A DNA stretch of 32,000 nucleotides from Variovorax sp. V213 (GTDB lineage Bacteria > Pseudomonadota > Gammaproteobacteria > Burkholderiales > Burkholderiaceae_C). The notes under the pieces were generated by a model that had not been told where the DNA came from, searched no databases, and saw only the letters and a list, made by a program, of their open reading frames with translations. Shown in pieces: positions 7,382 through 20,955 of the stretch; positions within the stretch are counted from its first letter, which is position 1; every line of letters starts with the position of its first letter. The stretch is from the NCBI RefSeq assembly GCF_041154455.1, contig NZ_AP028664.1:1915935-1947934 (forward strand), in the 5' to 3' direction. The translations under genes were made by a program, and so were the position numbers.

Positions 7382-7399
7382 TGGAGCGGGTGAAGGGAA
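7382..7399. repeat. distal att direct repeat (TGGAGCGGGTGAAGGGAA), a displaced copy of the tRNA-Gly 3' end
   Basis: Exact 18/18 match to 20882-20899. Flanking bases differ on both sides (c/a before, g/t after). Confidence 0.8.
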
Positions 7400-7512
7400 G
7401 CTAAGTGTGGCTTGGAAGCCGCATTCAGCCTAGGTTTTTGCTGTTTGATCGCTCAGTGTTCCCCCTTGTGTTCCCCGTTCTTGCCGGTCCGATTCGCCAT
7501 GGTCTTTTAGAG

Positions 7513-7542
7513 GAGAAGAAAAAGCCCGCGCGAAGGCGGGCT
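7513..7542 (-). terminator. intrinsic-terminator-like hairpin with U-tract (minus strand)
   Basis: Stem aGCCCGC (7523-7529) pairs with GCGGGCt (7536-7542), loop gcgaag. On the minus strand it is followed by TTTTTCTTCTC (complement of 7513-7523). Confidence 0.5.
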
Positions 7543-7871: not shown

Positions 7872-7886
7872 TTGTCGTTGATGGCT

Positions 7887-8519
7887 TCATAGCTCATCGT
7901 CGTCTCCTTTTTGAGGTACATCATTTTCCGCAAGGTCTTGTTGTGCCGTAGGGGCCAGTGCGGCGTTATCTATCGAAGGAAACGGTGCCGACGCTAAGCT
8001 CCACCCAAGCTTCCGATCTGAATGCAGGTGCGGCGTCTCCGACATGATCTGAACTAACCGATGCAAGGGGTTCTTAATTCCACTGAAATCGACGTTCTGC
8101 GCAGACAACTCATCAAAGATCGCTTTCGTCGCTAGTGGTCGTCCAGGACGCAGCAAATTCTCAATCCGCCGTATCACGTCGGCACGCCACGCTCGCCGGC
8201 TTTGAAAAACCTGCTGCATTGGCGAGGATGTGGGCGGTCCGCCGCCGAAGAGCATTGGGCGACCTATAAGAATTGCTGCTGCTGTCGCAGCAGAGATCGG
8301 AGGGGTAGACGGGCTGGTCGGCTGCAGTTCTATCAGCGCCTTTGCCGAGAGCGCTGCGACGATCTTGTGCCGTTTGGCTAGAAGTGCGTCCACGCGTGCG
8401 CGCGCCAGCGTCACGGCTTCCACCAGTCGCTGGTGATCGGCTTCAGCACGGGCAACCTCGCCCTCCACCTGCTGCAGGAGTAGCTGCATGCCTTCGACCA
8501 CGATGTCTTCGTCTGCCAT
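7887..8519 (-). CDS. hypothetical protein: N-terminal coiled-coil, Pro/Ser/Ala linker, C-terminal winged-helix-like (HARE-HTH-like pattern) region
   Basis: ORF 7887..8600 in the track. The ATG at 8519 (MADEDIVVEG...) is preferred over the upstream TTG. The C-terminal segment ADVIRRIENLLRPGRPLATKAIFDELSAQNVDFSGIKNPLHRLVQIMSETPHLHSDRKLGWSL resembles the HARE-HTH pattern by eye. G+C is lower than in the core genes, and an AT-rich 114-bp region lies upstream. Confidence 0.6.
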   Translation of the reverse strand: MADEDIVVEGMQLLLQQVEGEVARAEADHQRLVEAVTLARARVDALLAKRHKIVAALSAKALIELQPTSPSTPPISAATAAAILIGRPMLFGGGPPTSSPMQQVFQSRRAWRADVIRRIENLLRPGRPLATKAIFDELSAQNVDFSGIKNPLHRLVQIMSETPHLHSDRKLGWSLASAPFPSIDNAALAPTAQQDLAENDVPQKGDDDEL

Positions 8520-8633
8520 TCGCCGGATTATTGCAGAGAAGAGACGAAGACGGAGACAAAATGTTCTTGATGGAGAACTATTTTGCGATAGAAAAGACAA
8601 ATCGCATGTGTTCTTGTCCAGTAGGGTAAATTA

Positions 8634-8900
8634 CTAGGCTCCCCGGGAAAGCCACCGCTGCACACCTTGTCGGTCAATGAATACATGGCCGTCCGGCGCC
8701 CGCAAATACTCGCGCCCTTCGAGCCATACCCCCTCTTTGATCTTCGACCGGATGGCGGCCTCGCTGTAGCCGCTGACTACGGCATGGAGCTTGATCGTCA
8801 CGAATCGATCAGGTGCTAGGTACACGGGGCAAGGCGAGACCTCGCATGCCACGTGCGCCGCAACGGAACGCGCAAATGCGTCGAATGCCTCTTCGATCAT
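8634..8900 (-). CDS. excisionase-like DNA-binding protein (lambda-Xis-like winged helix at the C terminus)
   Basis: 88 aa. RFVTIKLHAVVSGYSEAAIRSKIKEGVWLEGREYLRAPDGHVFIDRQGVQRW fits the excisionase-like pattern (HTH, then G.W.EGREY..AP.G...ID..GV.RW). The start overlaps the upstream stop as ATGA (8897-8900). Confidence 0.7.
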   Translation of the reverse strand: MIEEAFDAFARSVAAHVACEVSPCPVYLAPDRFVTIKLHAVVSGYSEAAIRSKIKEGVWLEGREYLRAPDGHVFIDRQGVQRWLSRGA

Positions 8901-9184
8901 TCGGAAATCTCATCCATGAGGCTTGCGACGGCAAACGCATGCCCCGCATCTGCTGAAACGCGATTAACCGCGGCTGCATCGGTGCCGGCAAGCAGGATGT
9001 GTGACGCTACGCATGAGTGCAGCATGTAGATCACATTAGAAAAGTCGAGCCCAGTTTTCGCGCTCAGGCTCCTAACCGCGCCGATGCAAACTTGGCGCAT
9101 CATCGCCAAGTTGCAAACGTCGGCCCCATGAGCGGCGGCTAGCTCTTCAATGAGGCCACCAAGTTCCCTGTTTCCGATCACCAT
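8897..9184 (-). CDS. hypothetical protein (95 aa), translationally coupled to the excisionase-like gene
   Basis: ORF 8897..9373 in the track. The internal ATG at 9184 (MVIGNRELGGLIEELAAAHG...) is preferred because the upstream part (RIRFVPSSISPYASP...) overlaps the divergent promoter region. No recognisable domain. Confidence 0.5.
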   Translation of the reverse strand: MVIGNRELGGLIEELAAAHGADVCNLAMMRQVCIGAVRSLSAKTGLDFSNVIYMLHSCVASHILLAGTDAAAVNRVSADAGHAFAVASLMDEISE

Positions 9185-9287
9185 TACTGGCGCTCCAAGT
9201 TGGTTGCTGATGGGTGAAGCGTAGGGAGAGATTGAAGAAGGAACAAACCGGATACGGCGTGTCGCACTCTGGAAATAGGGCCTTATC

Positions 9288-9302
9288 CTGTTTGCGAAAC
9301 AG
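9288..9302. promoter_or_regulatory. perfect 6-3-6 palindrome CTGTTTgcgAAACAG, candidate operator
   Basis: Read directly. It sits in the 133-bp divergent region between the genes starting at 9184 (minus) and 9318 (plus), and ends 1 nt before the AAAGGAG SD of the plus-strand gene. Confidence 0.35.
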
Positions 9303-9317
9303 CAAAGGAGAAGACCA

Positions 9318-9620
9318 ATGTGGACAATCGCAGCGCGCGTTGAGCCGAATCGCGGTGGCTCGTCGGCTCGCAAGTTTCGCCTTTACGCCCTGCCTGGGCA
9401 GCCCGTGAGTGACGATGTTCCGATCTCGTGTCCTGTCGATGAGCGCCATAACGGGCGCTTCTACTTGGTCAACGTGGCGATGACCGCTGCAAGTCCAAAC
9501 ATGAGGTCCTACCCTTATGTGCTGAACATGAAAACGATTGCGATGACCCTCATTGAACAAGGGGCCGCGCTCGCCCACGTTCAGAAGACGTTTGGCGACA
9601 AGCGGCCGCGAAGGAAATAG
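9318..9620 (+). CDS. hypothetical small protein (100 aa), possible regulator
   Basis: ATG at 9318 preceded by AAAGGAG (9304-9310, 7-nt spacing). The sequence looks protein-like (…FRLYALPGQPVSDDVPISCPVDERHNGRFYLVNV…KTIAMTLIEQGAALAHVQKTFG). It converges on the tape-measure gene stop with a 6-bp gap. Confidence 0.6.
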   Translation: MWTIAARVEPNRGGSSARKFRLYALPGQPVSDDVPISCPVDERHNGRFYLVNVAMTAASPNMRSYPYVLNMKTIAMTLIEQGAALAHVQKTFGDKRPRRK

Positions 9621-9626
9621 TCGAGC

Positions 9627-12602
9627 TCATCGCGTCACGCGCTTCGACAGGTTCGTGAGCGTCTTGGTGAAGCGCGCGGCTTCTTCTTCGGACGCCATGC
9701 CGAACTGTTCGCGGCTGCCGTCCGGGAACTTGAAGTCCACGGTGTGTCGGCTGTCCGCCGCGCCCTGTTGCGCAGGGGCCGACGCGCTGGACTGCTGATG
9801 GTTGCCGGCGCCGAATGTCACGCTCTCCGCAGCCTTGAGCAGTGCCGTGTTCAGGGTGCTCCCGTCCCCGCCGTACTTCTTCTGGCCGGGGTTGTTGAAA
9901 AACGGGATGTCGCCTCGGCTGTCGGCAAATTCGTTTGTGATGCGCCGTGCTTGCGCGTCATCCGTGACACCCGCGGCCTTGAGAAATTCAAGGACGCTCG
10001 TACGCGTGGCCCCGCCTGCGTTGATCGTGTTTCCCGCCTTGTCCAGGCTGAAACCATTTTTGTCGACGCCCTTGCGTCGGTTCTCCAGCGCAAGTTGTCG
10101 CTCGGCCAGGTCGAGGGCCTTTTCTTGCGCCGAGATGCTCGCCTCCAGTGCAGCGGTGCGCGCCTGTTCGCTGTTGGCAAGGCTGCGAATCTTGTCGGCC
10201 AGGATGTCGGCCTTCTGAGCTTCCAGGTCCTTGAGGTCGGCACTGCGTCGGGCCGCGTCGATCTCGGCCAGCTTCGACGCCGTGAGTTCTCCGGTAGCGC
10301 GAAGCTCGTTTTCCCGTGCGTCGGCCGCATCGTGGATTGCCTGCGCTTCCCGCCGGGCACTGGCGGCGGCTTCGTCGGCTGCACGGGCCTGCAGCGCCGT
10401 CGCTTGCATCTGTGCCTGTGTGGCGGCCGTGGCGTCGCCATTGGCCTGTGCCACCTCGCGCATGGCGTTGGCCCGCTCGATGTCCACGCTGATTGCCGAC
10501 TGCGTGACTTGCCCGGATCGTTGCTCGGCCTGCACCTTGCGCTGCGCCGCGTCGGTGGCATCGCGTAAGGCGTCGCGATAGAGGGCCGTCGCGCTGGCGG
10601 CGCGTGCCTGCGCTGCGGCCACGTCGTCACTCGATGCCTTGCCCTTCTTCTGCGCTTCGACCAGGCGTTCCACTTCGCGGGCTGCCTCGGCCGCTGCGCC
10701 GCGCAGTTCGTAGACTCGCGCGGCGTTGTCCTTGTACGCCTCCGCGGCTGCCTGTGCCGCGGCCACCTCAACCTGTTTGGATCGCGCGCCGGCAATCGCC
10801 TGATCGGCTTCGGCGCGCTTGGCATCGGCGGACTGCTGCGCTGCTTTGATCTGGTCCTGCGTGGCGCGGGTGGTGTCCCGGCGCTGCAGCGCCTCTTCCT
10901 GCAATCGCAGGCTGTAGCTCTGCGCGATGATCGCCTCGGCGTTGCGCGCGTCGGCCAGGTCCTTTGAGGCTCGCGCCTGCACACTTGCCGCCTCGGCCGC
11001 GGCCTGCCGGCGCTCCGCCTCGGTGCCGTAGATGCTGACCAGCGAGGTGAGCGTCGCGGCTTCGGCCTGGCGCGCTGCTGCGCTCTTCGTCATCAGGTCG
11101 GTGTACTGTGCAGCACCCTTGATTAGTTCGCCGTAGGAGGCGCGCACGGCCAGGTTCGAGGTCGTGTGTCGCTCTTGCGCGGCAATGGCGTTGTCGACGG
11201 CGCGCACCTGCGCCTGCGTGGCTTGCGTCGCGCCGTCCAACGCCTTTGTGATCAGGCCGGCGGCTTCGGCCGCCTGAGTCAGTTCACGGTCGTACTTCGC
11301 GTTGAGCGCGGCCGCCTGCTGCAGGTCGAAATTACCGGTGCGCACTGCGGCGGCAAATTCGCCAATGGCCGTGCCCGCCACGTCGGCCGCGTTGCTGAGC
11401 CCGCGGACGCCAAGGGCCGCCCACGCTAGGCCCTTCGCGATCCCCTTCGAAGCGCCACCTTCGCCGATGGCGTTGGCAGTGTCTGCCATGACATTCTTCA
11501 AGCGCGCCCACTCGGAGTAAATTGTCTGCGGCGGGACAGCGTTGGCATAGAGCTCGTTGAGCCCCGAGGTCAGGGCGGGCAACAGGTCTTTTGCAAGGGC
11601 TTGTCCTGCCTCGACCATATTGGTGAGCCCTTCCACCGTCATGCCGGCACCCTTTGCGGCTGCCTCCATGGCGCCAGGGAGTGCCTCGCCGAGTTGTCCG
11701 CGCAGTTCCTCCATGGAAACGGTGCCCTTGGAGGCCATCTGACTGATGGCTGTCAAAGCTTGATCGGTCTGTGCGCTGCTCTTGCCCAGGGAAGACATGG
11801 CGCGAGCAGTTGCCTCGAAAACCGCTCGCGTAGCTTCGCCTTCTATCGCGGTGCCCTTCGTCGCGGCCGCCAGCGATGTATAGGAGCGCGCCAGCGCCTG
11901 CGATTCAATGCCGAGTTTGTTCGCCGTGGTGCGCACAAACTCCATCTCATGCGCGGCGCGTTCTGCGCTCCCGAAGATGGCTTGAAATGAAAGGGCAAGT
12001 TGCTGCTGCTCAGCGATGGTTTGCACGAACTGCTGCGCGCCGAAGGCTGCAGCCATCGCGGACACCAGGGGGCGCAGTGCACCGACTGCGTCGTCGGACA
12101 CCTTGCGCAGGCCGCCCACGCTGTCACTCGCCGCCTTTGTGGCCTTGACCACGGCCGTTGCCTGGGTGGCGAGTTCCTTTTCGGCGGCTGCGGCCTTCGC
12201 GGTTTCCCCTGCAATCTTGGTGAGCTCTTCCTTTTTCGCCCGTAGGGCGATGCCCTCGTCGTGAATTGCCAAGCGGGCGGCTTGTACCTGCGCTTTGTAG
12301 TCCGCGGTCTTCTTCGTCGCTGCATCGGTCTCGATGCCCGATCGCCTCAATGCATCCGTCTGCTGTTGGATGCCGGTTTTGGTCTGCGCGATGTTCGCGA
12401 CGAGCGCTTTCTCTGCTTCGCGCAGGCGAAGTGTTTCCGCTGCGGCTTTATCCATGTCGTCGGCGAGACGCTGGAATGCTGGTGCGGCATCGCCACCGGC
12501 CTTCGCCAGGTCTCGCACCTGAGCCTGCAGGTCCTTGACCCCTTGGCTGCCGTCGGTCGTTACCTTGATGCCGAGCTCGACATCGCGTTTATTCGTCGCC
12601 AT
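9627..12602 (-). CDS. phage tail tape-measure-domain protein (~991 aa)
   Basis: ORF 9627..12653 in the track. The ATG at 12602 (MATNKRDVELGIKV) is preferred because AGGA lies 7 nt upstream. A tape-measure signature is read directly: GKSSAQTDQALTAISQMASKGTVSMEELRGQLGEALPGAMEAAAKGAGMTVEGLTNMVEAGQALAKDLLPALTSGL. The C-terminal ~500 aa are an Ala/Gln/Glu/Arg-rich predicted coiled coil, as is typical of TMPs. Confidence 0.85.
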   Translation of the reverse strand: MATNKRDVELGIKVTTDGSQGVKDLQAQVRDLAKAGGDAAPAFQRLADDMDKAAAETLRLREAEKALVANIAQTKTGIQQQTDALRRSGIETDAATKKTADYKAQVQAARLAIHDEGIALRAKKEELTKIAGETAKAAAAEKELATQATAVVKATKAASDSVGGLRKVSDDAVGALRPLVSAMAAAFGAQQFVQTIAEQQQLALSFQAIFGSAERAAHEMEFVRTTANKLGIESQALARSYTSLAAATKGTAIEGEATRAVFEATARAMSSLGKSSAQTDQALTAISQMASKGTVSMEELRGQLGEALPGAMEAAAKGAGMTVEGLTNMVEAGQALAKDLLPALTSGLNELYANAVPPQTIYSEWARLKNVMADTANAIGEGGASKGIAKGLAWAALGVRGLSNAADVAGTAIGEFAAAVRTGNFDLQQAAALNAKYDRELTQAAEAAGLITKALDGATQATQAQVRAVDNAIAAQERHTTSNLAVRASYGELIKGAAQYTDLMTKSAAARQAEAATLTSLVSIYGTEAERRQAAAEAASVQARASKDLADARNAEAIIAQSYSLRLQEEALQRRDTTRATQDQIKAAQQSADAKRAEADQAIAGARSKQVEVAAAQAAAEAYKDNAARVYELRGAAAEAAREVERLVEAQKKGKASSDDVAAAQARAASATALYRDALRDATDAAQRKVQAEQRSGQVTQSAISVDIERANAMREVAQANGDATAATQAQMQATALQARAADEAAASARREAQAIHDAADARENELRATGELTASKLAEIDAARRSADLKDLEAQKADILADKIRSLANSEQARTAALEASISAQEKALDLAERQLALENRRKGVDKNGFSLDKAGNTINAGGATRTSVLEFLKAAGVTDDAQARRITNEFADSRGDIPFFNNPGQKKYGGDGSTLNTALLKAAESVTFGAGNHQQSSASAPAQQGAADSRHTVDFKFPDGSREQFGMASEEEAARFTKTLTNLSKRVTR

Positions 12603-12610
12603 TGGAATTC

Positions 12611-12910
12611 CTAGATCGGTGTGTTGCGATGAGCAGGGCGTGCCCGCTTCCAAGCTGTGATGCCCGCCTCTGCGCGCGGCGGTGCTCCGTAGAGGTCATC
12701 CCATGTCACGGCTGAGATGTCCTCGACGCGCAGGTCGATCGACGCGGGGCCGCCCTTCAGGCGCCAGACCCCGCCGAGTCGATAGACCCGAATCTCCAGC
12801 GTGGTGCAGCGGGCCAGGGCGGGCGCGTGGGGTGCGAGCAGAGGACTCGACTCGGCATCAGACCAGCGCACGCGGCGCGGCTCGTCGGTGTCGAATCGGT
12901 CTTTCTTCAT
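12611..12910 (-). CDS. hypothetical protein (99 aa) immediately upstream of the tape-measure gene
   Basis: ATGA overlap with the upstream gene (12907-12910). Its stop lies 8 nt before the TMP ATG. It is in the -1 frame relative to the upstream ORF. Confidence 0.6.
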   Translation of the reverse strand: MKKDRFDTDEPRRVRWSDAESSPLLAPHAPALARCTTLEIRVYRLGGVWRLKGGPASIDLRVEDISAVTWDDLYGAPPRAEAGITAWKRARPAHRNTPI

Positions 12911-13359
12911 CGCTCGTGCAGTTTTCTTTCGAGCGTCTTCACCTTTGCGGTGAGCACCGCAATGGCCTCGGCCTTAGCTTTCCGCTCTGCGTAGAACTGG
13001 CGTGCCATCTCGTCGATGGTGGACACGTTCGGGGCTTCGACTTGGCTTAGGAAACTGTCCACGTGCGCAGATTCGTCCCATTGCGCCAACTTGCTCAGGA
13101 CGGCGGCCCGGTAAGCCTCCACGGCCGCACCGCTCTTCACGGCTTGGGCCATCTCGATCTCGGGATTGATGCCGTGTTCCTTGTAAGCCGAAGCGGCGAC
13201 CTTGAAGATGCCGCAGATTTCAGATGCACGGGCCACGGCCGCGCGCGCGTTGTCGGGCGTGTCCAGGTTGACGGAGTCGCTGAACAATAGCGCTTGCACG
13301 ACGCGGGCGGGGAGCTTCGCCGCGGCTGCGAGTTCGATGGTCAGAGAGGCCTGGATCAT
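12907..13359 (-). CDS. hypothetical helical protein (150 aa), in the tail-assembly-chaperone position
   Basis: ATGA overlap with the upstream gene (13356-13359). The C terminus is a coiled coil (AERKAKAEAIAVLTAKVKTLERKLHER). GC3-rich codon usage. Confidence 0.7.
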   Translation of the reverse strand: MIQASLTIELAAAAKLPARVVQALLFSDSVNLDTPDNARAAVARASEICGIFKVAASAYKEHGINPEIEMAQAVKSGAAVEAYRAAVLSKLAQWDESAHVDSFLSQVEAPNVSTIDEMARQFYAERKAKAEAIAVLTAKVKTLERKLHER

Positions 13360-13850
13360 GCCGACACCTCCGCATCGAGCACGACAACCGGGTTTGCATC
13401 AGATCGGCGCAGCACGTCGCCGCCCGTGGCCTCGATCTCGCGAATCAACGTCTCTTCTGCGCGTTCGAGTTGCAGGAGCTCTGCGTCCAGGGCCTCCAGG
13501 CGCGCGGCGCGGTCGGGCTTTGCGAGGGTGTCGCCGTCGTTGAGGTGGCGCGTGAGCGCGGACAGGACGGCATCCACACCGAGCAGCGGGACGAGCAAGT
13601 CGCCGAGGTTCGCCGTGCGATCGACGTGCACGGTGAAGAACTGGCCGGGTTGCCCGGTCAGGACAGTCGACCACGCGTGTTGTGCTGCGCGCGCTCCGCG
13701 TTCCTCGTGCGCGACCAGCGTGGCGCGCACTTTCGCGACTGCTTCATCGCGAGATAGTTCGAACTGCGCGATGGTGGCGCGCTCGGCCAGCTTGGTGATG
13801 CGCTGCGCGCGAACGGCAGCCAGCTTTTCGAGAGATGTTTTCGGGGTCAT
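13356..13850 (-). CDS. hypothetical protein (164 aa)
   Basis: ATG at 13850 preceded by GAGAGG. GC3-rich frame. No recognisable domain. Confidence 0.7.
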   Translation of the reverse strand: MTPKTSLEKLAAVRAQRITKLAERATIAQFELSRDEAVAKVRATLVAHEERGARAAQHAWSTVLTGQPGQFFTVHVDRTANLGDLLVPLLGVDAVLSALTRHLNDGDTLAKPDRAARLEALDAELLQLERAEETLIREIEATGGDVLRRSDANPVVVLDAEVSA

Positions 13851-13865
13851 CGGGTGCCTCTCTGT

Positions 13866-14243
13866 TTACTGAATGAAAGCTTCGAGGCGCTCGATGAGCG
13901 CCGATTGCTGCTTGCTGCGCTCGGACGTGCGAGCAGCGTCTGCCGCTGCGTAGTCGAGTTGCTCCAGCAGCCCGACCAGTTCGCGCAACACCACCGGGCG
14001 GATGCCGATGGCCTCCAAGTCGGGCGTCTTGTCCAACAGGTTTTGCAACCAAGCGCGATCGCATCTGAGATTCCAGGCTGCTTCGGTGTCATGCGGATGC
14101 ATCTGACAATTGCGCCGTGTTGAAGCCACCGCCCGCCGTATCTCAACAAGCGCATCGGACGCTGCCAGTGCGACAAGGCGTGCACTATCGGCCTGCGCAG
14201 CGAGCCGTGCAAACCGCGAACGGTCGTAGATCAATTTCTTCAT
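13866..14243 (-). CDS. hypothetical helical protein (125 aa)
   Basis: ATGA overlap with the upstream gene (14240-14243). No recognisable domain. Confidence 0.65.
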   Translation of the reverse strand: MKKLIYDRSRFARLAAQADSARLVALAASDALVEIRRAVASTRRNCQMHPHDTEAAWNLRCDRAWLQNLLDKTPDLEAIGIRPVVLRELVGLLEQLDYAAADAARTSERSKQQSALIERLEAFIQ

Positions 14244-14515
14244 TGGCTGTCCTTTTGTGCATTGCGCTTGTTCCAGTAGTCGGCTGCGACAACTGCCATG
14301 GTCTTCGTGTTTTTTCCGCGAGCGTCGAGGCGAGCCAGGGCATCGGACATGCGAATGCCGGCTACTGGGTTGGCGGTCTGCTTCTTTTCTTCAAGCGCTC
14401 GCCGGCACTCGGTGCCGTACTTCACGACGGCAGGGGCATCGACGAATTGGTCGGCCGTGAGCGTGCCCTTGGCGAGCGCGTCGAGCGCTGCGCTCAGGTC
14501 CTTCGGCGTGCTCAT
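14240..14515 (-). CDS. hypothetical protein (91 aa)
   Basis: ORF 14240..14572 in the track. The ATG at 14515 (MSTPKDL...) forms an ATGA overlap with the upstream stop (14512-14515). Confidence 0.65.
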   Translation of the reverse strand: MSTPKDLSAALDALAKGTLTADQFVDAPAVVKYGTECRRALEEKKQTANPVAGIRMSDALARLDARGKNTKTMAVVAADYWNKRNAQKDSQ

Positions 14516-14769
14516 GGCTGCGCCTCCTGAAGCTCCAAAATTTTCGCGGCACCCTCGGGCGTAGCAAGCCATGCTTCTAGATCATGTCCGTTGACCAATC
14601 CATCTGTGGCGAGCAATCGCACGGGGTCAACAGGAATCGGGTGGGTGCGCCCTGGAATTTCTTGGGACGCAATCCCCTCGGCTAGCTGAGCCGGCGTGAT
14701 ACCTGCAACTCGGGCCGCAACATGCAGTTTCCAATTCTTGATGCCGCTGTTATCGACGCGGATGGTCAT
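14512..14769 (-). CDS. hypothetical small protein (85 aa), possible HTH
   Basis: ORF 14512..14940 in the track. The ATG at 14769 (MTIRVDNSGIKNWKLHVAARVAGITPAQLAEGI...) forms an ATGA overlap with the upstream stop (14766-14769). The longer N-terminal extension is an Arg/Ser/Pro-rich off-frame overlap. Confidence 0.65.
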   Translation of the reverse strand: MTIRVDNSGIKNWKLHVAARVAGITPAQLAEGIASQEIPGRTHPIPVDPVRLLATDGLVNGHDLEAWLATPEGAAKILELQEAQP

Positions 14770-14999
14770 CGCGCACCCCCGCGGACAAGTTGCACTACGT
14801 CGGCGGCGTTCACAAAACGCATGCCGCGATCGTTGGGACGCAGGGTGCGAACGGGACTCGGGAAGGTGTTGTCGAGCGCGCCGCGCCAGAGCAGTTCCGG
14901 AGGGATGCCGAGAATTTTGGCCGCTGCCGGCAGGCGCCAATAGCCGGGCGACGACGGAGCGGGCGTCTCGGCCAGTTCGTTGAAGGAATCGGAATTCAT
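14766..14999 (-). CDS. small HTH DNA-binding protein (AlpA/excisionase/MerR-like), first gene of the coupled operon
   Basis: ORF 14766..15014 in the track (TTG). The ATG at 14999 (MNSDSF...) is used here. YWRLPAAAKILGIPPELLWRGALDNTFP resembles an AlpA/excisionase-type HTH. No clear SD for either start. Confidence 0.6.
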   Translation of the reverse strand: MNSDSFNELAETPAPSSPGYWRLPAAAKILGIPPELLWRGALDNTFPSPVRTLRPNDRGMRFVNAADVVQLVRGGAR

Positions 15000-15186
15000 C
15001 TGAAGATCACACAAAGTTGCGATCTAGGCACTTTGCCGGCATCACGGCCCAAATGCCTGCGGATGAATTTCGGGACATGCTCAAATGATCAACGAGGAGT
15101 GCGGGCGAAAGGAGATGTCGGGTTTACTCCGGGAAGAAGGTCCCGAACGCACGATAAGCTGCAGCCTCCACAACGAGGAGTGAGAT

Positions 15187-15432
15187 ATGGCTTGGCACAT
15201 CGAGGGTTCGAAGTTGGTGAAGAGTGATGGAAAAGGAGTCCATTGGACTACGACCTATGGCCCTGGGGATGACGTACCCGTCTCGGGTATCTACCTCTGT
15301 CTCGGGTGCGGAAAGGAAGTCACTTGCAATCAGCCAGATAAATTCCCGCCTCAAAACAAGCATCAGCACACGGCGGCGGAGGGCAACATCCGATGGAAGC
15401 TGAATATCCGCACTAACACCGAAGGCGCATAG
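15187..15432 (+). CDS. small zinc-ribbon-like protein (81 aa), opposite orientation to its neighbours
   Basis: ATG at 15187 preceded by GAGGAG (15175-15180, 6-nt spacing). Contains GIYLCLGCGKEVTC plus downstream HQH. G+C is lower than its surroundings. Confidence 0.6.
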   Translation: MAWHIEGSKLVKSDGKGVHWTTTYGPGDDVPVSGIYLCLGCGKEVTCNQPDKFPPQNKHQHTAAEGNIRWKLNIRTNTEGA

Positions 15433-15471
15433 CCCGAGGTAGAAAATGAAATATCTGCAGAGCCTTGCGCA

Positions 15472-15491
15472 AATCTTGATTCATCAAGATT
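15472..15491. promoter_or_regulatory. 20-bp AT-rich palindrome AATCTTGAT-tc-ATCAAGATT (operator or weak bidirectional hairpin)
   Basis: 9-bp perfect arms read directly. It lies in the convergent gap between the gene ends at 15432 (plus) and 15619 (minus). No U-tract on either strand. Confidence 0.3.
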
Positions 15492-15618: not shown

Positions 15619-15930
15619 TCACAGGCGCGACAACCTATGTTGCTCAGCGTCGAGCCGAATGCCGATGAACCAGAGGCGCGCATTCGCCTGCTCGGTGGTC
15701 TCAGCTCTTGCTGCGATCCAGCCTACCGACGGTCGCGCGGCCGATGCGACCGTCACCCAGTCGTCGGGCGTCAGGTCCGACACAGGCGCAGCGCGCGCAT
15801 ACAGCGCGATGGCTGACGCCTCGCACCATTCAGTAGGCACGCGGCTTACGTCTGCGGTCAGCAGTGTTTGCAGCGCGATACGCGCGGCGCGGGGCGAGAG
15901 GCGCGCTGCAGCATCCAAGTAATCAGACAT
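15619..15930 (-). CDS. hypothetical protein (103 aa)
   Basis: ORF 15619..15978 in the track. The ATG at 15930 (MSDYLDAAARL...) overlaps the upstream stop by 8 nt (ATGTCTGA). Confidence 0.6.
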   Translation of the reverse strand: MSDYLDAAARLSPRAARIALQTLLTADVSRVPTEWCEASAIALYARAAPVSDLTPDDWVTVASAARPSVGWIAARAETTEQANARLWFIGIRLDAEQHRLSRL

Positions 15931-16183
15931 TCGACACCCCCATGGTCGGTGCACGTTCGCTAGCCAGTTGCTGCACACGCCGCAAGGTCACACCGAGGCG
16001 CGCGGCAATGGCAGGATATGGCACGCCCTCGGCCAGCAGACGCGCGACGCTCTCGCGCCGACGTGCGGCCGTCGTGGTGCGGATGGCGGGGACGCGGATC
16101 GTCTGTCCAGCGAGCTCGCGAGTGATTCGAGCCACCAGGGCAGGGCCGCAGATGCGGAGCAGCGTTTCTTGGACATCGGTCAT
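15923..16183 (-). CDS. small HTH protein (sigma-70 region-4-like / Mor-like C-terminal HTH), 86 aa
   Basis: ATG at 16183 preceded by AAGGAAA. RRESVARLLAEGVPYPAIAARLGVTLRRVQQL is a typical HTH. Confidence 0.7.
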   Translation of the reverse strand: MTDVQETLLRICGPALVARITRELAGQTIRVPAIRTTTAARRRESVARLLAEGVPYPAIAARLGVTLRRVQQLASERAPTMGVSNV

Positions 16184-16441
16184 TTATGCATTTCCTTGCT
16201 TGTATATGGAGTGGTCGAGTGACTGGCTCACCTGCCACACCTGCCCTACCTGTTTTGCATCCTTCTTACCAGGCGCGCTGTGGAACCTCCCATGTCTCAT
16301 CAATTGCTCTCTGTCTACTGTTAAAGAAAAGGTAGGGCAGGTAGGGCAATCGACCGGAAATCCAACGCTGGCGCGGGTTTGCACTGGCTGACCTACCTCC
16401 GAGACGGTGAGGCATTCGCTGGTTAGGTGAGGCAAAGTCAT
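16184..16441 (-). CDS. questionable 85-aa ORF that exactly fills the primase-to-HTH gap and contains the iteron-like repeats
   Basis: For: an ATGA overlap with the primase stop (16438-16441), and its TAA abuts the next ATG (TAAATG at 16183-16186). Against: markedly lower G+C, repeat-derived peptide stretches (CPTCPTF, QVGQVWQVSQ) and no domain. Confidence 0.4.
   Translation of the reverse strand: MTLPHLTSECLTVSEVGQPVQTRASVGFPVDCPTCPTFSLTVDREQLMRHGRFHSAPGKKDAKQVGQVWQVSQSLDHSIYKQGNA
16224..16434. repeat. cluster of eight 9-mers GGT(A/G)NG(G/C/T)CA in both orientations (iteron-like; candidate replication origin or regulator array)
   Basis: Read directly. Three contiguous minus-orientation units: TGGCTCACC (16224-16232), TGCCACACC (16233-16241), TGCCCTACC (16242-16250). 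Two tandem plus-orientation units: GGTAGGGCA (16331-16339 and 16340-16348). Also TGACCTACC (16389-16397), and GGTGAGGCA at 16406-16414 and 16426-16434 (20-bp spacing). Confidence 0.6.
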
Positions 16442-18867
16442 GCTGTCATCTGCGCGGGTCGAATGAAAAACCAGCAGCGCACGCCGTTCGCCATCTCTCT
16501 GACGCGCTGCCAGCCCATTGAGGTGAGGCAGGCAGCGGCCCGCATCTCGTCGGCCCGTTTGAAGTCACCTACTCGCTTGTCGAGTGCCACGTGCAACACG
16601 TCGCGTGTCGTGGTTCGCGCCAGGGGATTCGGGAAGTGCGGATCGTGCGGTCGCCGACCATCGAGATAGTCTGCAATCGCCGGTACCCATGCGTCATCGT
16701 CCTGATACTTGTGGTGCTCCGCTTCGGCCAAGCGTTCGGCGTCTTCCCACATCACGCCATGCGCGTCAAACAGTGCAGCGCCCTCGGCCCATAGTTGATC
16801 GCGGTCGCGAGCCACTCCGTCCGGATCGCAACGGCCCGCTTCGAAGGGCAGGAATCGACGACTACCCGTCGGGTCGGTGAGGAAGTCGCGTTTGTTGGTG
16901 CTGCCGAAGAAAATGAAACGCCTCGGGTTGCGTGTCTGGTGCTCCACGTATTTCGGCACCCACATATCGACCTGCTTCGTAATGAACGCCTTCAGGTCGC
17001 TCGCGTCACGCTGGCTCATGCCGCGCAGTTCGGGGAGTTCGACAACCAGCTTGCCCGACAGCATGCGCGCCGTGTCGTCGTCGCGGTCGGCAAGGTCGAG
17101 CTCGTAAAAGGTGTCCTCGTGCGGCGCCATCGCGCGGATGGCGCTTGACTTCATCAGGCCCTGTATGCCGACAGCCACGGGCACCATGTCAGCCTTCACA
17201 CCGGGCTGAATCACACGTCCCGCGAGTGCCGACCATATGTAGCGCGACACTGCTTGCGCATAGGGCGTGTCGGCCGTGCCGAAACACTGGCCCAGGAATC
17301 GATCAACCCGCGGCGTGCCGTCCCATGTGGGAAGGCTGCTCAGCCATTTTTGAGCGCTGTCCCGCTCGTTCTCTTGCGCAACAAGCAGTATTGCGTCGCG
17401 CATTTTTTCCTTCGACACTTCGCCGAACGAATGGCTTAGTTGCAGATGCTCTCGCGCCGACGTGTAGTCGTTGTCGGTGAGTTGTCGCAACTGAGCGCCG
17501 TCGTCCAGGTCCACGACTTGCCGAAAAGTGTCGAGTGAGGGGCGAAACCCGCATATATCGGATTGGCGCAGGGCGCTCAGCACATTGGGGAGCGTCGGTT
17601 CGACGACGCCGAGCTTGTTTCGGGGGAAGTCCTGACGCTCTTCGCGGCGCGGCGCCACGAGCTTGCGGCACATCGCGATGGGGAACTTGGTGCCGAGTCC
17701 GCCGAACACCTTGACCAGCAACTGCGCCAGTTCCTCGCGCTCCATCTCGCCGATGCGATCATCGCGGGCGAGCTCGGGGCACATCTTCTCGCGCAGCACG
17801 AAGTCGTCGCTGCAGGCGGTCAGCTTGGCCTTCCACTCGTCGCGCGCACGGTAGCCAGCGCGGGTGCGTTGCTCGTTCGCCTGCTTGATGAGCCAGGCCA
17901 TCGTGATCGACGCGCCTGCGAACTTGCCAAAGGAGCGCCACCGCTCCATGCAGTACGCCTCGGTCGTGTACTTGGGGCTCGCCTTCGACCAGTTGTGCCA
18001 GAGCTCGAATCCCTCGCCCTGCGTCTCCTGATGGACGGCCATGCCGACCTTGACCCACGTGTCGTAGTCGAGGTCCGCCGGCAGCACGTCGAGGTGCCCC
18101 ACGATCTCGCCGTTGCTCAGGCCGAGGGTCGGCGACAGCGCCATGAGACCGAAGCCATCGTCGTCGAACACCTGCGACGGCGCGCGGCTGAGCGAGCCCC
18201 ACCGCGACACGTAGTCCGCGATGACGGCCGGCGTGAGGTCGCACAGCGTGTCCTCGAAGCCGAACAGCGCACACTCGTCGGTGATGTCGCCGGTGACCGT
18301 GACGAAGCCGTTGTGGCCGAAGTATTCAACGGCGAACGAGCCGCGCTCGGCGTCCACGTCCTTCTTCGACTCGACCGAGCCGCGCATGAACGCGCGCAGG
18401 CCGGTGCCGGAGGGGCTGATCTCGGTGTAGGTGCCCGACACGAGCTCCGCGACGCGCGGATCGATGACTCGGTCCACCACGCAGTTGTCGAAGTCCAGCG
18501 CGACCAGGTTGAAGTCGGCGTGCATCGCGAAGCCGACGCCCTGCCAACCCCCGTCGCGCGCCACGCGCACCGCCTCGTCGAAGGTGACCATCGCGGCCCG
18601 ATCCTCCGGCGACCCTTGCGTCCCGCTGCGCGGCAGCCCCGACGCGTAGTACGGCACCTTGCGGGGCTTCTTGTCGCCGTTGGGCACGAACTTCCACACG
18701 AGCCACGCGCGCTTCGATGCGAGCTCGGCAGGCACTGAGGCCGGTAGCGAAGCGCCTCGCCCCGCGATTTCGCTATTGCGATTCAGAATTTGCATTGCTG
18801 ATTTCTGTTTGCGCCGAGCCCCACGCTCGGCGCTTTTCTTTATGCCACTGGGCAAGGCGAAACACAC
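16438..18867 (-). CDS. phage/plasmid primase-helicase: N-terminal PrimPol-like, PriCT-2-like middle, VirE-like C-terminal NTPase domain
   Basis: 809-aa ORF from GTG 18867, with an alternative ATG at 18795 (MQILNRNSE...). N terminus: WLVWKFVPNGDKKPRKVPY, ALDFDNC (~18481-18505), SPSGTGLRAF (~18383-18424). Middle: YDTWVKVGMAVHQETQGEGFELWHNWSKASPKYTTEAYCMERWRSF (PriCT-2-like). C terminus: PTWDGTPRVDRFLGQCFG...VAVGIQGLMKSSAIR (VirE-like with a P-loop-like segment, 17141-17172). Confidence 0.9.
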   Translation of the reverse strand: MCFALPSGIKKSAERGARRKQKSAMQILNRNSEIAGRGASLPASVPAELASKRAWLVWKFVPNGDKKPRKVPYYASGLPRSGTQGSPEDRAAMVTFDEAVRVARDGGWQGVGFAMHADFNLVALDFDNCVVDRVIDPRVAELVSGTYTEISPSGTGLRAFMRGSVESKKDVDAERGSFAVEYFGHNGFVTVTGDITDECALFGFEDTLCDLTPAVIADYVSRWGSLSRAPSQVFDDDGFGLMALSPTLGLSNGEIVGHLDVLPADLDYDTWVKVGMAVHQETQGEGFELWHNWSKASPKYTTEAYCMERWRSFGKFAGASITMAWLIKQANEQRTRAGYRARDEWKAKLTACSDDFVLREKMCPELARDDRIGEMEREELAQLLVKVFGGLGTKFPIAMCRKLVAPRREERQDFPRNKLGVVEPTLPNVLSALRQSDICGFRPSLDTFRQVVDLDDGAQLRQLTDNDYTSAREHLQLSHSFGEVSKEKMRDAILLVAQENERDSAQKWLSSLPTWDGTPRVDRFLGQCFGTADTPYAQAVSRYIWSALAGRVIQPGVKADMVPVAVGIQGLMKSSAIRAMAPHEDTFYELDLADRDDDTARMLSGKLVVELPELRGMSQRDASDLKAFITKQVDMWVPKYVEHQTRNPRRFIFFGSTNKRDFLTDPTGSRRFLPFEAGRCDPDGVARDRDQLWAEGAALFDAHGVMWEDAERLAEAEHHKYQDDDAWVPAIADYLDGRRPHDPHFPNPLARTTTRDVLHVALDKRVGDFKRADEMRAAACLTSMGWQRVREMANGVRCWFFIRPAQMTA
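18811..18843 (+). terminator. strong GC hairpin with T-tract on the plus strand, between the 18874 gene and the primase ATG
   Basis: GCGCCGAGC (18811-18819), loop cccac, GCTCGGCGC (18825-18833), then TTTTCTTTAT (18834-18843). On the gene-sense minus strand the hairpin lacks a U-tract. Confidence 0.4.
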
Positions 18868-18873
18868 TGCGGC

Positions 18874-19143
18874 TCAATTTCGCGCTTTGCGTTTGACAAT
18901 CGCCAGGGCGACTGTGTATGCCTCGCGATGCCACCATCCGGGCTCTTGCCCGCGTTCCGCGGCCTCGATCCACTGCAGGTAGCACCAGGCGGCGCAGACT
19001 GGTCGGGGGAGGCCAGTGAGACGCGAGAGGAAGGCGGCCCGCTGCAGGTCCCGGTCGGCATGCCCTCCGTGGGCCTTGAATTGCGGATCGACGAGTGCGA
19101 GAGCACTGCCCTCCGACTCGCTGACCGTGGGGAGGCCCGACAT
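18874..19143 (-). CDS. hypothetical protein (89 aa; 105 aa if the GTG at 19191 is used)
   Basis: ORF 18874..19191 in the track. The ATG at 19143 lies 8 nt after the AlpA-like stop. No SD and no recognisable domain. Confidence 0.5.
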   Translation of the reverse strand: MSGLPTVSESEGSALALVDPQFKAHGGHADRDLQRAAFLSRLTGLPRPVCAAWCYLQWIEAAERGQEPGWWHREAYTVALAIVKRKARN

Positions 19144-19151
19144 GCGAGGAA

Positions 19152-19409
19152 TCACGCCGAGGCGGCGGTCTCGGCCTTCGACCGAAGCCACTGCGTCACA
19201 TCGCCTGCGCGCCAGCGGGTGCAGCGGATGCCGTCTTTCAGGGGCTTCGGAAACTTGCCGGCTGCCACCTTCCGGCGGATGGAAGACTCCGAAAGCCCCG
19301 TAACTCCGATCACGGTCTGGACCTTCAGCAGCGCGTCCGCGATGTGGACCGCGTCGAGAGATTGCAGCGGTTGGCTAGCTTGGCGGTATTGGGCAGTTTG
19401 TGACGGCAT
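19152..19409 (-). CDS. AlpA-family phage transcriptional regulator / excision factor
   Basis: ORF 19152..19457 in the track, with the ATG at 19409 preferred. LLKVQTVIGVTGLSESSIRRKVAAGKFPKPLKDGIRCTRWRAGDVTQWL matches the AlpA pattern (HTH, F-P-x-P-hydrophobic-K, W..(S/G)(E/D)(V/I)..W(L/I)). Confidence 0.8.
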   Translation of the reverse strand: MPSQTAQYRQASQPLQSLDAVHIADALLKVQTVIGVTGLSESSIRRKVAAGKFPKPLKDGIRCTRWRAGDVTQWLRSKAETAASA

Positions 19410-19495
19410 ATGGCACCTTTTGAATGGATGCCTCACAAGATGCCCATGGCGGCTCAAATCCCCCTGCGGTCAAATTTCGTAGTTATGTTTCATAA

Positions 19496-20710
19496 CTACT
19501 CTGTCGCGCGCAACTTGTCGAGATAGTTCGCCCACGTCACCATCATCTTCCGGCGCTGGTCTTTGAACTGCGCGCGGTTGTATGCCGTGCCGAGCGGCCC
19601 GCGCTTGCCGTGGGCAAGTTGCTCTTCAATCACTTCCGGGTCGATATGGAGCTCGTCGACCATGATCGTGCGCGCCATCGCGCGGAAGCCATGGGCGGTC
19701 ATCTCCGTATTGTCGAAGCCCATGCGCCGGAGTGCCGTGTTGATCGTGTTGTCGCTCATGGGGCGCTCGCCGGAAAGCAGGCTGGGAAAAACGTAGCGGC
19801 CGTGCCCCGTGAGCACGTGCATGCGCTTCAGGGACGCCACGGCCTGCGGTGCCAGCGGCACCAGGTGGGGCTCGCCGCTGATCTTTGCCTGCTTGGTCCG
19901 CTTCATGGACGCGGCCGGTATCGTGACGAGCGCGCCGTTGAGGTCGACCCACGACCATTCCATCGCCCGGATGTTGCCGGGGCGCTGGAAAAGCAGTGCA
20001 CTCAGTAATAGCGCCTCCTGCGTGGCGGGCAAGCCGTGGTAACTGTCGATTGCTCGCATGAGCGCGCCGGCTTTCTCCGCCGTCAGCACCGCCGCCATGT
20101 TCTTGACGATGACGGCGCCGAGCGCGTCGCGCAGCTTCGTTGCTGGGTCGTCGTCGCATCTGTCGGTTGCGATGCCATAGCGGAAAACCTGCCCCGCGTA
20201 CTGGCGTAGCGACACGGCCGTCTCGTTGAGGCCCTTGCTCTCCACGCGACGCAGCGGCTCCAGCAGCACACGAGCGGTAATCTCGCGCAGCGGTAAGCTG
20301 CCGATCCAGGGGAACAAATTGCTTTCCTGCAGGCGAAGCCACTTTGTGCTGTACGCCGCGCTCCATTCCTTCCGTTTGATCGCGTGAAATTCGCGAGCGA
20401 CTAGCTCGTATGTGGTGATGGCACTTGTGCGGACGAGCGCCTTATCGAGCCGGCGGCGCTGGGTTGGGTCGGCGCCTGACTGGTGGACCTTCCGCGCGTC
20501 GTCCCGCGCGGCGCGCGCATCCTTGAGCTTGACGGCGGGGTACACACCGATCGCGAGACGTTTTTCTTTGCCGGCGAACGAGTACTTCCAGAACCAGCGC
20601 TTCGAGCCGTTCAGAGCCACTTCGAGGTAAAGATTGCCGCCGTCGGTGAAGCGTGCGCGCGCCTTGTCAGGAGGGCAAGATGCGTTCTTGCAGGCGACTT
20701 CTGTGAGCAT
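19496..20710 (-). CDS. int: tyrosine recombinase, P4-type integrase (N-terminal arm-binding DUF4102-like plus catalytic domain)
   Basis: 404 aa. N terminus: LYLEVALNGSKRWFWKYSFAGKEKRLAIGVYPAVKLKDAR. Catalytic residues: ...FQRPGNIRAMEW (Arg), HGFRAMARTI (H-x-x-R), LAHGKRGPLGTAYNRA (His...Tyr). Lies directly next to the tRNA. Confidence 0.93.
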   Translation of the reverse strand: MLTEVACKNASCPPDKARARFTDGGNLYLEVALNGSKRWFWKYSFAGKEKRLAIGVYPAVKLKDARAARDDARKVHQSGADPTQRRRLDKALVRTSAITTYELVAREFHAIKRKEWSAAYSTKWLRLQESNLFPWIGSLPLREITARVLLEPLRRVESKGLNETAVSLRQYAGQVFRYGIATDRCDDDPATKLRDALGAVIVKNMAAVLTAEKAGALMRAIDSYHGLPATQEALLLSALLFQRPGNIRAMEWSWVDLNGALVTIPAASMKRTKQAKISGEPHLVPLAPQAVASLKRMHVLTGHGRYVFPSLLSGERPMSDNTINTALRRMGFDNTEMTAHGFRAMARTIMVDELHIDPEVIEEQLAHGKRGPLGTAYNRAQFKDQRRKMMVTWANYLDKLRATE

Positions 20711-20881: not shown

Positions 20882-20899
20882 TGGAGCGGGTGAAGGGAA
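20882..20899. repeat. proximal att direct repeat (within the tRNA-Gly 3' end)
   Basis: Exact 18/18 match to 7382-7399. It corresponds to the 3' T-stem strand, the 3' acceptor strand and CCA. Confidence 0.8.
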
Positions 20900-20955
20900 T
20901 CGAACCCTCGTATGAAGCTTGGGAAGCTGCCGTTCTACCATTGAACTACACCCGC
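20882..20955 (-). tRNA. tRNA-Gly (anticodon CCC), CCA encoded
   Basis: Reverse complement: GCGGGTG TA GTTC AATGGTA GAAC G GCAGC TTCCCAA GCTTC ATAC GAGGG TTCGATT CCCTT CACCCGC T CCA. This is a cloverleaf, nearly identical in layout to E. coli tRNA-Gly(CCC). There is one C28:U42 mismatch in the anticodon stem. Confidence 0.9.

Follow-up and report, generated by a model that had tools for sequence, protein, structure and literature searches.

A tape-measure-bearing island of Variovorax sp. V213 and its relatives: a probable satellite family of temperate siphophages

The chromosome of Variovorax sp. V213 carries a 13.5-kb island (positions 7382-20904) at a tRNA-Gly site within the 32,000-nucleotide (nt) stretch of DNA analysed here, which is referred to as the window. 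The island encodes a tape measure protein (TMP) as the last gene of an eight-gene operon. It is probably an integrative satellite of a temperate siphophage whose head is of the lambda type and whose terminase is of the cos type (GpA), and it would build chimeric tails with its own TMP. That the island is a satellite at all can be said with considerable confidence. Genes for integration and replication are present and the set of virion and packaging genes is incomplete, in agreement with the general definition of a satellite. A working role of its TMP within the island's particles is more tentative, though somewhat more likely than not. Gene content, homologies, conservation, selection, and shared motifs were observed, whereas statements on expression, packaging, and particle composition are inferences.

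Related islands share an Int-AlpA-primase core, a siphophage-type TMP, a helical protein (o164), and two cis elements. These features mark a family that has no capsid set in the Variovorax lineage. The family was not found in the literature or the deposited phage records that were searched, and it appears to be undescribed and widespread.

The tape measure protein

The TMP gene closes the operon, and two regions of its product are central to what follows.
9627..12602, minus strand: TMP, 991 amino acids (aa), with a TMP_3 core at residues 190-380 (nt 11463-12035) and a C-terminal tip-associated module at residues ~783-975 (nt 9678-10256)

The open reading frame (ORF), 9627-12653 on the minus strand, encodes 1008 aa from a TTG codon and 991 aa from the ATG at 12602. 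The product is 100% identical to GmRootV213_18230. An initial annotation, made from the letters alone, had seen a tape-measure signature in this ORF, and profile searches bear it out. The protein matches Pfam PF20155 TMP_3 (E 1.2e-27, 97.4 bits against a cutoff of 41, residues 190-380) and TIGR02675 tape_meas_nterm (7e-15, 55 bits against a cutoff of 21.35). It also matches 12 tape-measure families in PHROGs, the best being phrog_2335 (1.6e-39). The TMP_3 match likewise settles the annotation's own reservation that the 991-aa protein might lack a tape-measure domain.

TMPs usually lie within complete tail modules, between the tube and chaperone genes and the tail-tip genes, and tail length follows a rule of ~0.15 nm per TMP residue. 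Tube, chaperone, and tip genes were sought around the island TMP, and none was found in the island. The TMPs of the related satellites are 948-1036 aa long (mean 992, standard deviation 23). Full-length homologues among them are 31-86% identical, and the alignments start at residue 1. Satellite TMPs and the TMPs of complete phages have in common an N-terminal motif, the TMP_3 core, and the C-terminal module. The TMPs of the phage relatives are longer (1111-1377 aa) through additional coiled-coil sequence. In other words, the satellite TMP seems to be a whole tape that retains its two docking ends and falls short of its phage relatives in length. A satellite-specific N-terminal domain was considered and rejected because the N-terminal motif is present in phage TMPs as well.

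The same TMP family is present in ~100 phage-type loci. The closest phage TMP (1259 aa, 64% identity over residues 168-957) is encoded by a Pseudacidovorax prophage equipped with a GpA terminase, a portal of the lambda family, an S49 protease, decoration protein D, and capsid protein E, together with a major tail protein (phrog_807) and a tail-tip gene set. A homologue at 47% identity likewise lies inside a complete prophage. Since close homologues occur in complete prophages, the TMP is not exclusive to satellites. A further 34 phage contigs in IMG/VR share only the last ~190 residues (781-975) at 45-53% identity, a few of them reaching 70% over shorter stretches, and the remainder of their TMPs is of a different (PhageMin_Tail) type. 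These contigs span 23-80 kb, and 30 of them fall between 35 and 48 kb. Of 51 phage loci with the C-terminal module, 48 also encode a member of one tail-tip protein family; truncated loci are among the three exceptions. In satellites, the module is present in all 14 loci and the matching tail-tip gene in none of the 14. When deposited phage genomes were searched with the island TMP, the TMP_3 core alone matched, and no record covered 80% or more of the protein.

Two observations concern TMP genes elsewhere in the family. In locus L119, a 109-nt stretch of the TMP_3 core is duplicated (9648-9756 and 10729-10837, 88% identical). The duplicate lies within a 95-aa ORF just upstream of the TMP gene, and this ORF shows 62% identity to residues 232-279 of the V213 TMP. 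In phage loci L085 and L121, the TMP gene starts ~80-90 nt after the major tail gene, and no separate G/GT chaperone genes were called between them. The classical chaperone pair may be missing from phages of these types or be encoded elsewhere.

The seven small genes of the operon

The TMP gene is preceded by an array of seven small genes, all on the minus strand.
14766..14999, minus strand: o78, 77 aa, small winged helix-turn-helix (HTH)-like protein, first gene of the operon
14512..14769, minus strand: o85, 85 aa, distant paralogue of o78
14240..14515, minus strand: o91, 91 aa, specific to the Variovorax lineage
13866..14243, minus strand: o125, 125 aa, specific to the Variovorax lineage
13356..13850, minus strand: o164, 164 aa, satellite-specific, all-helical
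12907..13359, minus strand: o150, 150 aa, homologue of a scaffold-like domain
12611..12910, minus strand: o99, 99 aa, strongly conserved, directly 5' of the TMP gene

Five junctions, which can be denoted by product length as 77/85, 85/91, 91/125, 164/150, and 150/99, are ATGA overlaps, and the two remaining operon junctions are gaps of 15 nt and 8 nt. Reading of the sequence thus agrees with the initial annotation on the five 4-nt overlaps and on six of its seven ORF sizes, the first ORF being 77 rather than 78 aa. Such coupling is frequent in operons of high GC and, taken alone, is unremarkable. All eight operon genes are conserved in Variovorax sp. SG517 with a ratio of nonsynonymous to synonymous substitution rates (dN/dS) of 0.05-0.29 (dS 0.25-1.4), which indicates that they are real genes. 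The lowest value, 0.05, belongs to o78. The o99 gene was overlooked in the SG517 annotation, yet it is under purifying selection (95% identity, dN/dS 0.09), and it is also present in V. atrisoli.

What do these proteins do? No significant match was obtained for any of the seven in Pfam, PHROGs, NCBIfam, or PADLOC, so the earlier statement that none of them could be named holds for family searches. It does not hold for o150, which is remotely scaffold-domain-like by profile comparison. A phmmer match connects o150 to locus L060 (1.8e-5). An intermediate 128-aa satellite family (cluster 135) matches phage cluster 21 at 97% in hhalign, and o150 itself matches the same phage cluster at 46% (E 2e-4). 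There is also a weak match to phrog_4523. The phage partner of o150 is the C-terminal extension, behind an alanine-rich linker, of ~350-aa ClpP-type prohead proteases. A hidden Markov model (HMM) of the scaffold-like domain also matches 700-aa phage fusion proteins, in the stretch that separates their protease part from their capsid part, which is where scaffolding or delta domains are located. On the basis of these comparisons, o150 seems to be a remote homologue of the scaffold-like C-terminal domain of phage ClpP-type head proteases.

The o164 protein is the most characteristic of the satellites. A similar protein is found in at least 11 of the 14 satellites, and its HMM matches satellite loci exclusively. 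The family comprises 611 cluster representatives among 1.84 billion proteins. It belongs to no Pfam or PHROG family, and none of the 60 members tested convincingly matches a PHROG. Likewise, it was absent from all 84 IMG/VR loci. The AlphaFold2 (AF2) model of o164 is predicted with confidence (pLDDT 90.6) and consists of three long helices, and no fold match was found in PDB or BFVD. The AF2 model of o99 is unreliable (pLDDT 53) and too poor for judging a chaperone fold. A programmed -1 frameshift of the G/GT kind between o164 and o150 was considered. The candidate heptamer (A AAC CCG at 13395) is not conserved in SG517 or V. atrisoli, and the idea was rejected.

The operon also resembles phages in its order. 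Members of the o78 family occur in 10 loci, among them phages L085, L088, and L092, and in these phages they stand directly before a DUF1441 gene, which overlaps the start of the GpA terminase gene. The idea that o78 and o85 are pieces of a DUF1441 protein was rejected for lack of similarity. Among the related satellites, five carry a capsid protein E gene, four carry a ClpP protease gene, and three (L002, L123, and L125) carry the DUF1441 gene, which occupies the small-terminase position. A portal gene was never seen in the related satellites, which have at most the capsid protein or the ClpP protease among the capsid genes of the capsid-forming type of phage-inducible chromosomal islands (cf-PICIs). 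The place of o78 before DUF1441 in phages, the nature of o150, and the head genes of relatives together suggest that the operon is a phage late-region skeleton in phage order. Searches of the V213 proteins themselves against Pfam, PHROGs, and NCBIfam gave no match to a family of terminase, portal, capsid, tube, sheath, or baseplate proteins. The earlier claim that the element has no virion genes beyond the TMP is thus right as to family matches, and it is softened by the scaffold-domain likeness of o150 and by the capsid protein E, ClpP protease, or DUF1441 genes of the relatives.

A family of small islands

Full-length TMP homologues are found in 14 satellite-type loci, among them loci of Variovorax sp. 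SG517, V. humicola, several metagenome-assembled genomes, and many metagenome contigs. The V. atrisoli island (L125) is an additional member that was reached via an o99 search. The layout common to the 14 loci consists of an integrase gene, a primase gene, an o78-like gene, an o164-like gene (at least 11 of 14), and the TMP gene. The survey of related genomes proposed in the initial annotation therefore finds the gene set recurring, and it recurs in a narrow size band. Repeat spacing gives island sizes of 13,500, 14,203, 14,666, 14,129, and 14,246 bp, and islands that form whole contigs measure 13,509-14,771 bp. Among the 50 closest TMPs, 28 have a longest contig of more than 12 kb, and half of these (14 of 28) are on contigs of 12.1-14.8 kb. 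The IMG/VR scans returned phages only, with no satellite-type locus among the loci fetched.

The islands are diverse in their mobility genes. Their tRNA genes include tRNA-Gly, Asn, Lys, Pro, and Thr. Integrase types differ among them, and the primases are of the PriCT_2/VapE, D5_N, DUF5906, and AEP-TOTE types. The islands relate in size to the related complete viral contigs (IMG/VR, 35-48 kb) as ~1:3, a ratio that also holds for P4/P2 and SaPI/80alpha. It was considered whether the 13.5-kb contigs are circles. However, contig L002 ends in a 15-nt tRNA-like repeat, which fits breakage at attachment (att) sites instead.

Two relatives show unusual arrangements. In L097 (Paucibacter sp., 7586-17843), an integrase gene and an AlpA gene are upstream of a gene for a 1339-aa TMP, and a primase gene and a copy of the ~95-nt element described below are downstream. 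This locus is either a satellite adjoining a phage or a different architecture. In L118 (719-1180), a 231-nt tandem duplication with 98% identity lies just outside the SG517 island, beside the tRNA-Gly gene.

DNA signals shared with phages

Two short DNA sequences are common to the islands and certain phages. One is a 16-nt motif, CGAAATT-N3-CCGCAG. The window contains three exact matches, all on the coding strand of the island, where none is expected. The other is a ~95-nt non-coding element with an invariant GGGG-N-CCC core.
19464..19479, minus strand: motif copy 1, CGAAATTTGACCGCAG, in the gap between int and alpA
18867..18882, minus strand: motif copy 2, CGAAATTGAGCCGCAG, upstream of the primase ATG at 18795
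15057..15072, minus strand: motif copy 3, CGAAATTCATCCGCAG, its 5' end 72 nt upstream of the o78 start codon
15479..15572, minus strand: ~95-nt element, with the GGGGACCC core followed by GCGGGG..AGAGGC and a T/A-rich tail

The 16-nt motif stands before the o78-like gene in nearly all satellites, and the position of copy 3 is matched in 11 others. In one group of phages (L078-80, L085, L087, L088, and L092), the motif is present 4-5 times per late region, where copies are found ahead of the terminase operon as well as ahead of the genes for portal, protease-scaffold, tube, and tip. The ~95-nt element was matched by nhmmer in 11 satellites, one copy each, after the replication module and before the operon. 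Phages L085, L088, L091, L092, and L126-L128 also have a single copy, and in them the motif, the o78-like gene, DUF1441, and the GpA terminase gene follow immediately downstream of it. A location upstream of the terminase genes is the cos position in lambda-type phages. An RNA structure in the element was considered and rejected, as there were no compensatory changes or covariation and the consensus energy was -5.3 kcal/mol. The element was therefore treated as a DNA site, and its position makes it a candidate cos or pac site. Phage contig L128 encodes, just upstream of the element, a protein homologous to the HTH_23 protein of the island, so that the synteny reaches a candidate activator.

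A perfect palindrome, ATCTTGAT-GA-ATCAAGAT, occupies 15473-15490 at the A/T-rich end of the element. It is kept in the SG517 element and not in the V. atrisoli element, and it could be an operator or an integration host factor (IHF)-like site.

How the island may exploit a helper phage

Mobilisation and encapsidation by a helper find indirect support in the size of the island, about one-third of that of the related phages, and in the shared cis elements. A working model would have four steps. A late-gene regulator, encoded by the helper or being the island's own HTH_23 protein, would act on the CGAAATT-N3-CCGCAG motif before alpA, the primase gene, and the operon, so that excision, replication, and morphogenesis would be switched on together. 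The helper terminase would then package island DNA via the ~95-nt element at 15479-15572. The scaffold-like and helical proteins would bias helper capsid assembly towards a size suited to about one-third of a helper genome. Finally, the 991-aa TMP would dock by its phage-like C-terminal module onto the helper tail-tip complex and displace the longer helper TMP. The products would be transducing particles with chimeric tails that combine helper tube and tip proteins and that would be ~20-60 nm shorter. Why would a satellite carry a private TMP? The likely benefit is an escape from an island- or host-encoded block directed at TMPs, or an altered specificity of DNA entry.

The initial annotation had listed a satellite that brings its own TMP, and perhaps chaperones, among three alternatives. 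This is the alternative best supported by the recurrent size-constrained family, the shared TMP ends, the phage-type cis elements, and the precedent of PLE11 (see below). The part concerning chaperones has no counterpart among the recognised genes of the island.

Several points weigh against the helper-dependent satellite. No helper phage lies within the window, and the cis elements are shared with phages of one type (L085), while the closest TMP C-terminus is that of another type (L121), so that the helper must be a mosaic of a kind not seen. The V213 island has no small-terminase homologue and no recognised tail assembly chaperone. The o150 link is remote when made directly, at 46% in hhalign, and stronger solely via the intermediate family. 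Family searches gave no role for o164, o99, o125, or o91. Furthermore, the cos role of the ~95-nt element is deduced from its position, and a regulatory region is equally possible.

Alternative explanations

A rather doubtful variant of the satellite explanation is that the islands form a P4-style family in cross-talk with lambda-like siphophages. Such islands would use the helper's cos-type site and late motif together with their own activator, and the TMP would be the sole virion part that is swapped. The private TMP would serve entry into helper lysogens by evading superinfection exclusion aimed at TMPs, or else an anti-TMP inhibitor that the island encodes. It would also set a distinct, shorter tail. 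The o164 protein might then be an adaptor that steers the TMP or small-capsid assembly to satellite particles. It is also conceivable, though unlikely, that the TMP acts in interference only. As a dominant-negative decoy, it would give dead or wrong-length helper tails and protect the host population, and the island would not need it for its own transfer. Tail assembly is a known target of satellite and island defences such as the Tai systems (PMC11364771) and Rta (PMC12987554), and the tip-docking C-terminal module is common with phage TMPs, so that competition is conceivable. The interference option of the initial annotation leaves the conserved full length (~990 aa) and both termini unexplained. 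A decoy would need neither both termini, nor the TMP_3 core, nor a length of 992 +/- 23 aa across elements that are 31-86% identical. The co-conserved cos-like site, the scaffold-like gene, and the size constraint point to the island's own packaging instead, and the PADLOC defence models had zero matches among the island proteins.

A role outside tails altogether is very improbable. In that case, a mobile island would use a TMP-domain protein as an abortive-infection bait or sensor or as a membrane channel, and its resemblance to satellites would be superficial. Most operon proteins lack a family match and the cargo varies among relatives (for example, a RelA_SpoT protein in L124), as such a role would allow. 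However, virion assembly is indicated by the phage-type late motif and by the element near the terminase genes, as it is by the scaffold-domain gene and by what relatives carry, namely capsid, protease, and small-terminase-like genes. The least probable explanation, and one to which hardly any weight is given, is that a full-length siphophage prophage was recently reduced to this island by deletion, the TMP gene being kept by chance. The TMP homologues at 64% and 47% identity in complete prophages and an operon order that mirrors a phage late region are what such a remnant would leave. Against it stand at least 14 independent elements that agree in size and layout although their tRNA sites, integrases, and primases vary, the purifying selection and lack of pseudogenes, the 611 cluster representatives of the o164 family with no phage member among them, and the intact repeats and integrase. 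The deletion option of the initial annotation finds no support in view of the various tRNA sites, the differing integrases and primases, and the dN/dS of 0.05-0.29. The annotation's argument from intact repeats, integrase, and ORFs against plain decay was sound, and the dN/dS pattern excludes recent prophage decay. Operon homologues confined to 35-45-kb prophages at one tRNA site, which would have marked a remnant, are not what was seen; they occur in small islands at several tRNAs.

Comparison with known satellites

The nearest precedent for a helper-dependent satellite with its own TMP is PLE11 of Vibrio cholerae, for which experiments showed chimeric tails 10 nm shorter than those of ICP1 (Mathur, Boyd et al., Nature 2026, PMC12987554). 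Its genes include those for a TMP, a chaperone, and a baseplate hub, and its Rta protein blocks the phage TMP. Putative tmp genes are also present in PLE-like elements and some cf-PICIs (PMC12987554). Like PLE11, the V213 island lacks most tail genes and encodes its own TMP, which in PLE11 takes the place of the helper's in chimeric tails and differs from it in length. The likeness is drawn without sequence comparison, and the integration and replication modules differ. Furthermore, the helper of PLE is the lytic myovirus ICP1, whereas the phages related to the V213 island are temperate siphophages with lambda-type heads. No chaperone, baseplate hub, or Rta is recognisable in the V213 island. 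In other words, out of the PLE tail trio (TMP, chaperone, and baseplate hub), the TMP alone was found.

EPIPs are 11-kb satellites of the Mycolicibacterium prophage HerbertWM that bear a TMP, alter tail length, and have smaller capsids (bioRxiv, December 2025, PMC12822802). The V213 island resembles them as a small siphophage satellite with TMP and scaffold-type genes and without a tail tube or tip. In contrast to the V213 island, they encode a serine integrase, a small terminase, proteins of the head-tail adaptor and stopper kind, and a capsid protein, and they lack a primase. The EPIP host is actinobacterial, and EPIP tails exceed those of the helper, whereas the V213 TMP is shorter than those of the related phages.

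The island shares with P4 the Int, AlpA, and primase-helicase core, the primase being here of the PriCT_2 + VapE type, as well as tRNA integration and a genome that is small relative to the helper's, at about one-third. Further points of likeness would be a helper-type cos site and late-promoter elements in common with the helper. However, no Sid, Psu, Delta, or Eps match was found among the island proteins in PHROG, Pfam, or NCBIfam, the helper of P4 is a myovirus, P4 encodes no tail component, and the domain make-up of the primase-helicase differs. The layout of Int, AlpA, and primase is also that of phage-inducible chromosomal islands, or PICIs, and Staphylococcus aureus pathogenicity islands (SaPIs). 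The SaPI protein CpmB is a scaffold homologue that remodels helper capsids, and o150 appears scaffold-like. Some relatives of the V213 island, like PICIs, have a gene in the small-terminase position, a capsid protein, or a protease. No TerS, Ppi, or CpmA/B was recognised in the V213 island, and a TMP is outside the PICI definition. It differs from cf-PICIs in lacking the defining portal, protease, capsid protein, and connectors. PhiAH14b of Pseudomonas is a 16.8-kb satellite that is packaged as multimers into full-size helper heads (PMC4936722). It is similar to the V213 island in being proteobacterial and in having a P4-like core (integrase, AlpA, and primase) and one tail-related gene, a homologue of tail assembly protein I, but it lacks a TMP.

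Boundaries of the island and its remaining genes

The island is delimited by att repeats of which one forms the end of a tRNA gene.
20882..20955, minus strand: tRNA-Gly(CCC) (ARAGORN; Rfam tRNA 67 bits)
20882-20904: right att repeat, the 3' 23 nt of tRNA-Gly(CCC)
7382..7542, minus strand: region containing the left att repeat (7382-7404) and a conserved att-proximal arm
7523-7542, minus strand: strong intrinsic terminator

The two repeats (7382-7404 and 20882-20904) have an 18-nt exact core in common, against a chance expectation of 0. The GC content is 0.62 in the island and 0.70 and 0.66 in the flanks. Rfam found nothing in the window besides the tRNA. The flanks are ordinary chromosome, with a gene for a hybrid nonribosomal peptide synthetase/polyketide synthase (NRPS/PKS) on the left (3-6263, minus strand), which extends past the window edge, and alaS, panE-like, DAO, peptidase M1, and solute-binding genes on the right. 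A 1791-aa plus-strand ORF (210-5585) was dismissed as an antisense artefact of high GC; the true gene is the minus-strand NRPS/PKS, whose AMP-binding, PP-binding, KS, and AT domains lie opposite. Between the start of this gene and the left att repeat there is a ~1.1-kb stretch of low GC (6264-7381, 0.56) without a convincing gene. An additional att copy was sought for this stretch, and none was found.

All island genes are on the minus strand with a single exception. Their order is integrase, AlpA, primase-helicase, the 86-aa HTH_23 protein, a 103-aa protein, a non-coding stretch with the plus-strand gene (15187-15432), the seven small ORFs, TMP, three small genes of which one is DUF1233 excisionase-like, and the terminator.
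19496..20710, minus strand: tyrosine integrase, 404 aa (Arm-DNA-bind_3, Phage_int_M, Phage_integrase)
19152..19409, minus strand: AlpA-family regulator, excisionase-like, ATG at 19409 (PF05930 Phage_AlpA, 2.4e-9)
16438..18795, minus strand: primase-helicase, PriCT_2 + VapE-like, ATG at 18795 (PF08707, 6e-19; PF05272, 7e-55)
15923..16183, minus strand: 86-aa HTH_23 protein (PF13384, 4.8e-7; weak sigma70-region-4 and Mor matches)
15619..15930, minus strand: 103-aa conserved protein, kept in L118 and L123, dN/dS 0.20
15187..15432, plus strand: 81-aa opposite-strand gene with a CxxC motif and a weak YjzC match
8634..9373, minus strand: two small genes, the first with a ~95-aa conserved part and the second encoding an 88-aa DUF1233 excisionase-like protein
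7887..8600, minus strand: 237-aa variable cargo gene, no family match, missing from SG517

The Int-AlpA-primase core named in the initial annotation is thus confirmed by profile matches for all three proteins. The integrase is 95% identical to that of SG517 with a dN/dS of 0.04. The N-terminal half of the primase is 69% identical in amino acids to that of SG517 (16438-17867 versus L118 4391-6165), and the C-terminal halves are unrelated. Judged from these alignments, the difference, VapE being the C-terminal part in V213, is a domain swap inside the replication gene. The HTH_23 protein is kept in seven satellites and is a candidate activator of the motif-bearing units. The DUF1233 excisionase-like protein is conserved across satellites.

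The 81-aa gene sits between the cos-like ~95-nt element and the operon's 16-nt motif. It is kept in V. atrisoli (L125, 81 aa, minus strand, 7771-8016) and missing from SG517, and it is a possible switch, repressor, or other regulator. The slot just 3' of the TMP gene holds variable cargo in relatives, such as a RelA_SpoT-domain protein in L124 (11390-12451) and a 433-aa protein in L125 (13341-14642). This slot may be an accessory or defence hotspot.

Significance

To our knowledge, satellites were believed, until 2025-26, to take whole tails from their helpers. The principle that a satellite supplies its own TMP has since been published, and what appears to be new is the Burkholderiales family. 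The o164 protein defines a protein family with hundreds of members, and ~14-kb islands of this type are missed by virus-finding pipelines. If the explanation favoured above is true, the family would extend TMP replacement of the PLE11 type to temperate siphophages of soil and water Betaproteobacteria. The minimal parts list for such a replacement would consist of a TMP, a scaffold-like protein, and one helical protein, and the two short DNA signals would represent a directly testable wiring between helper and satellite.

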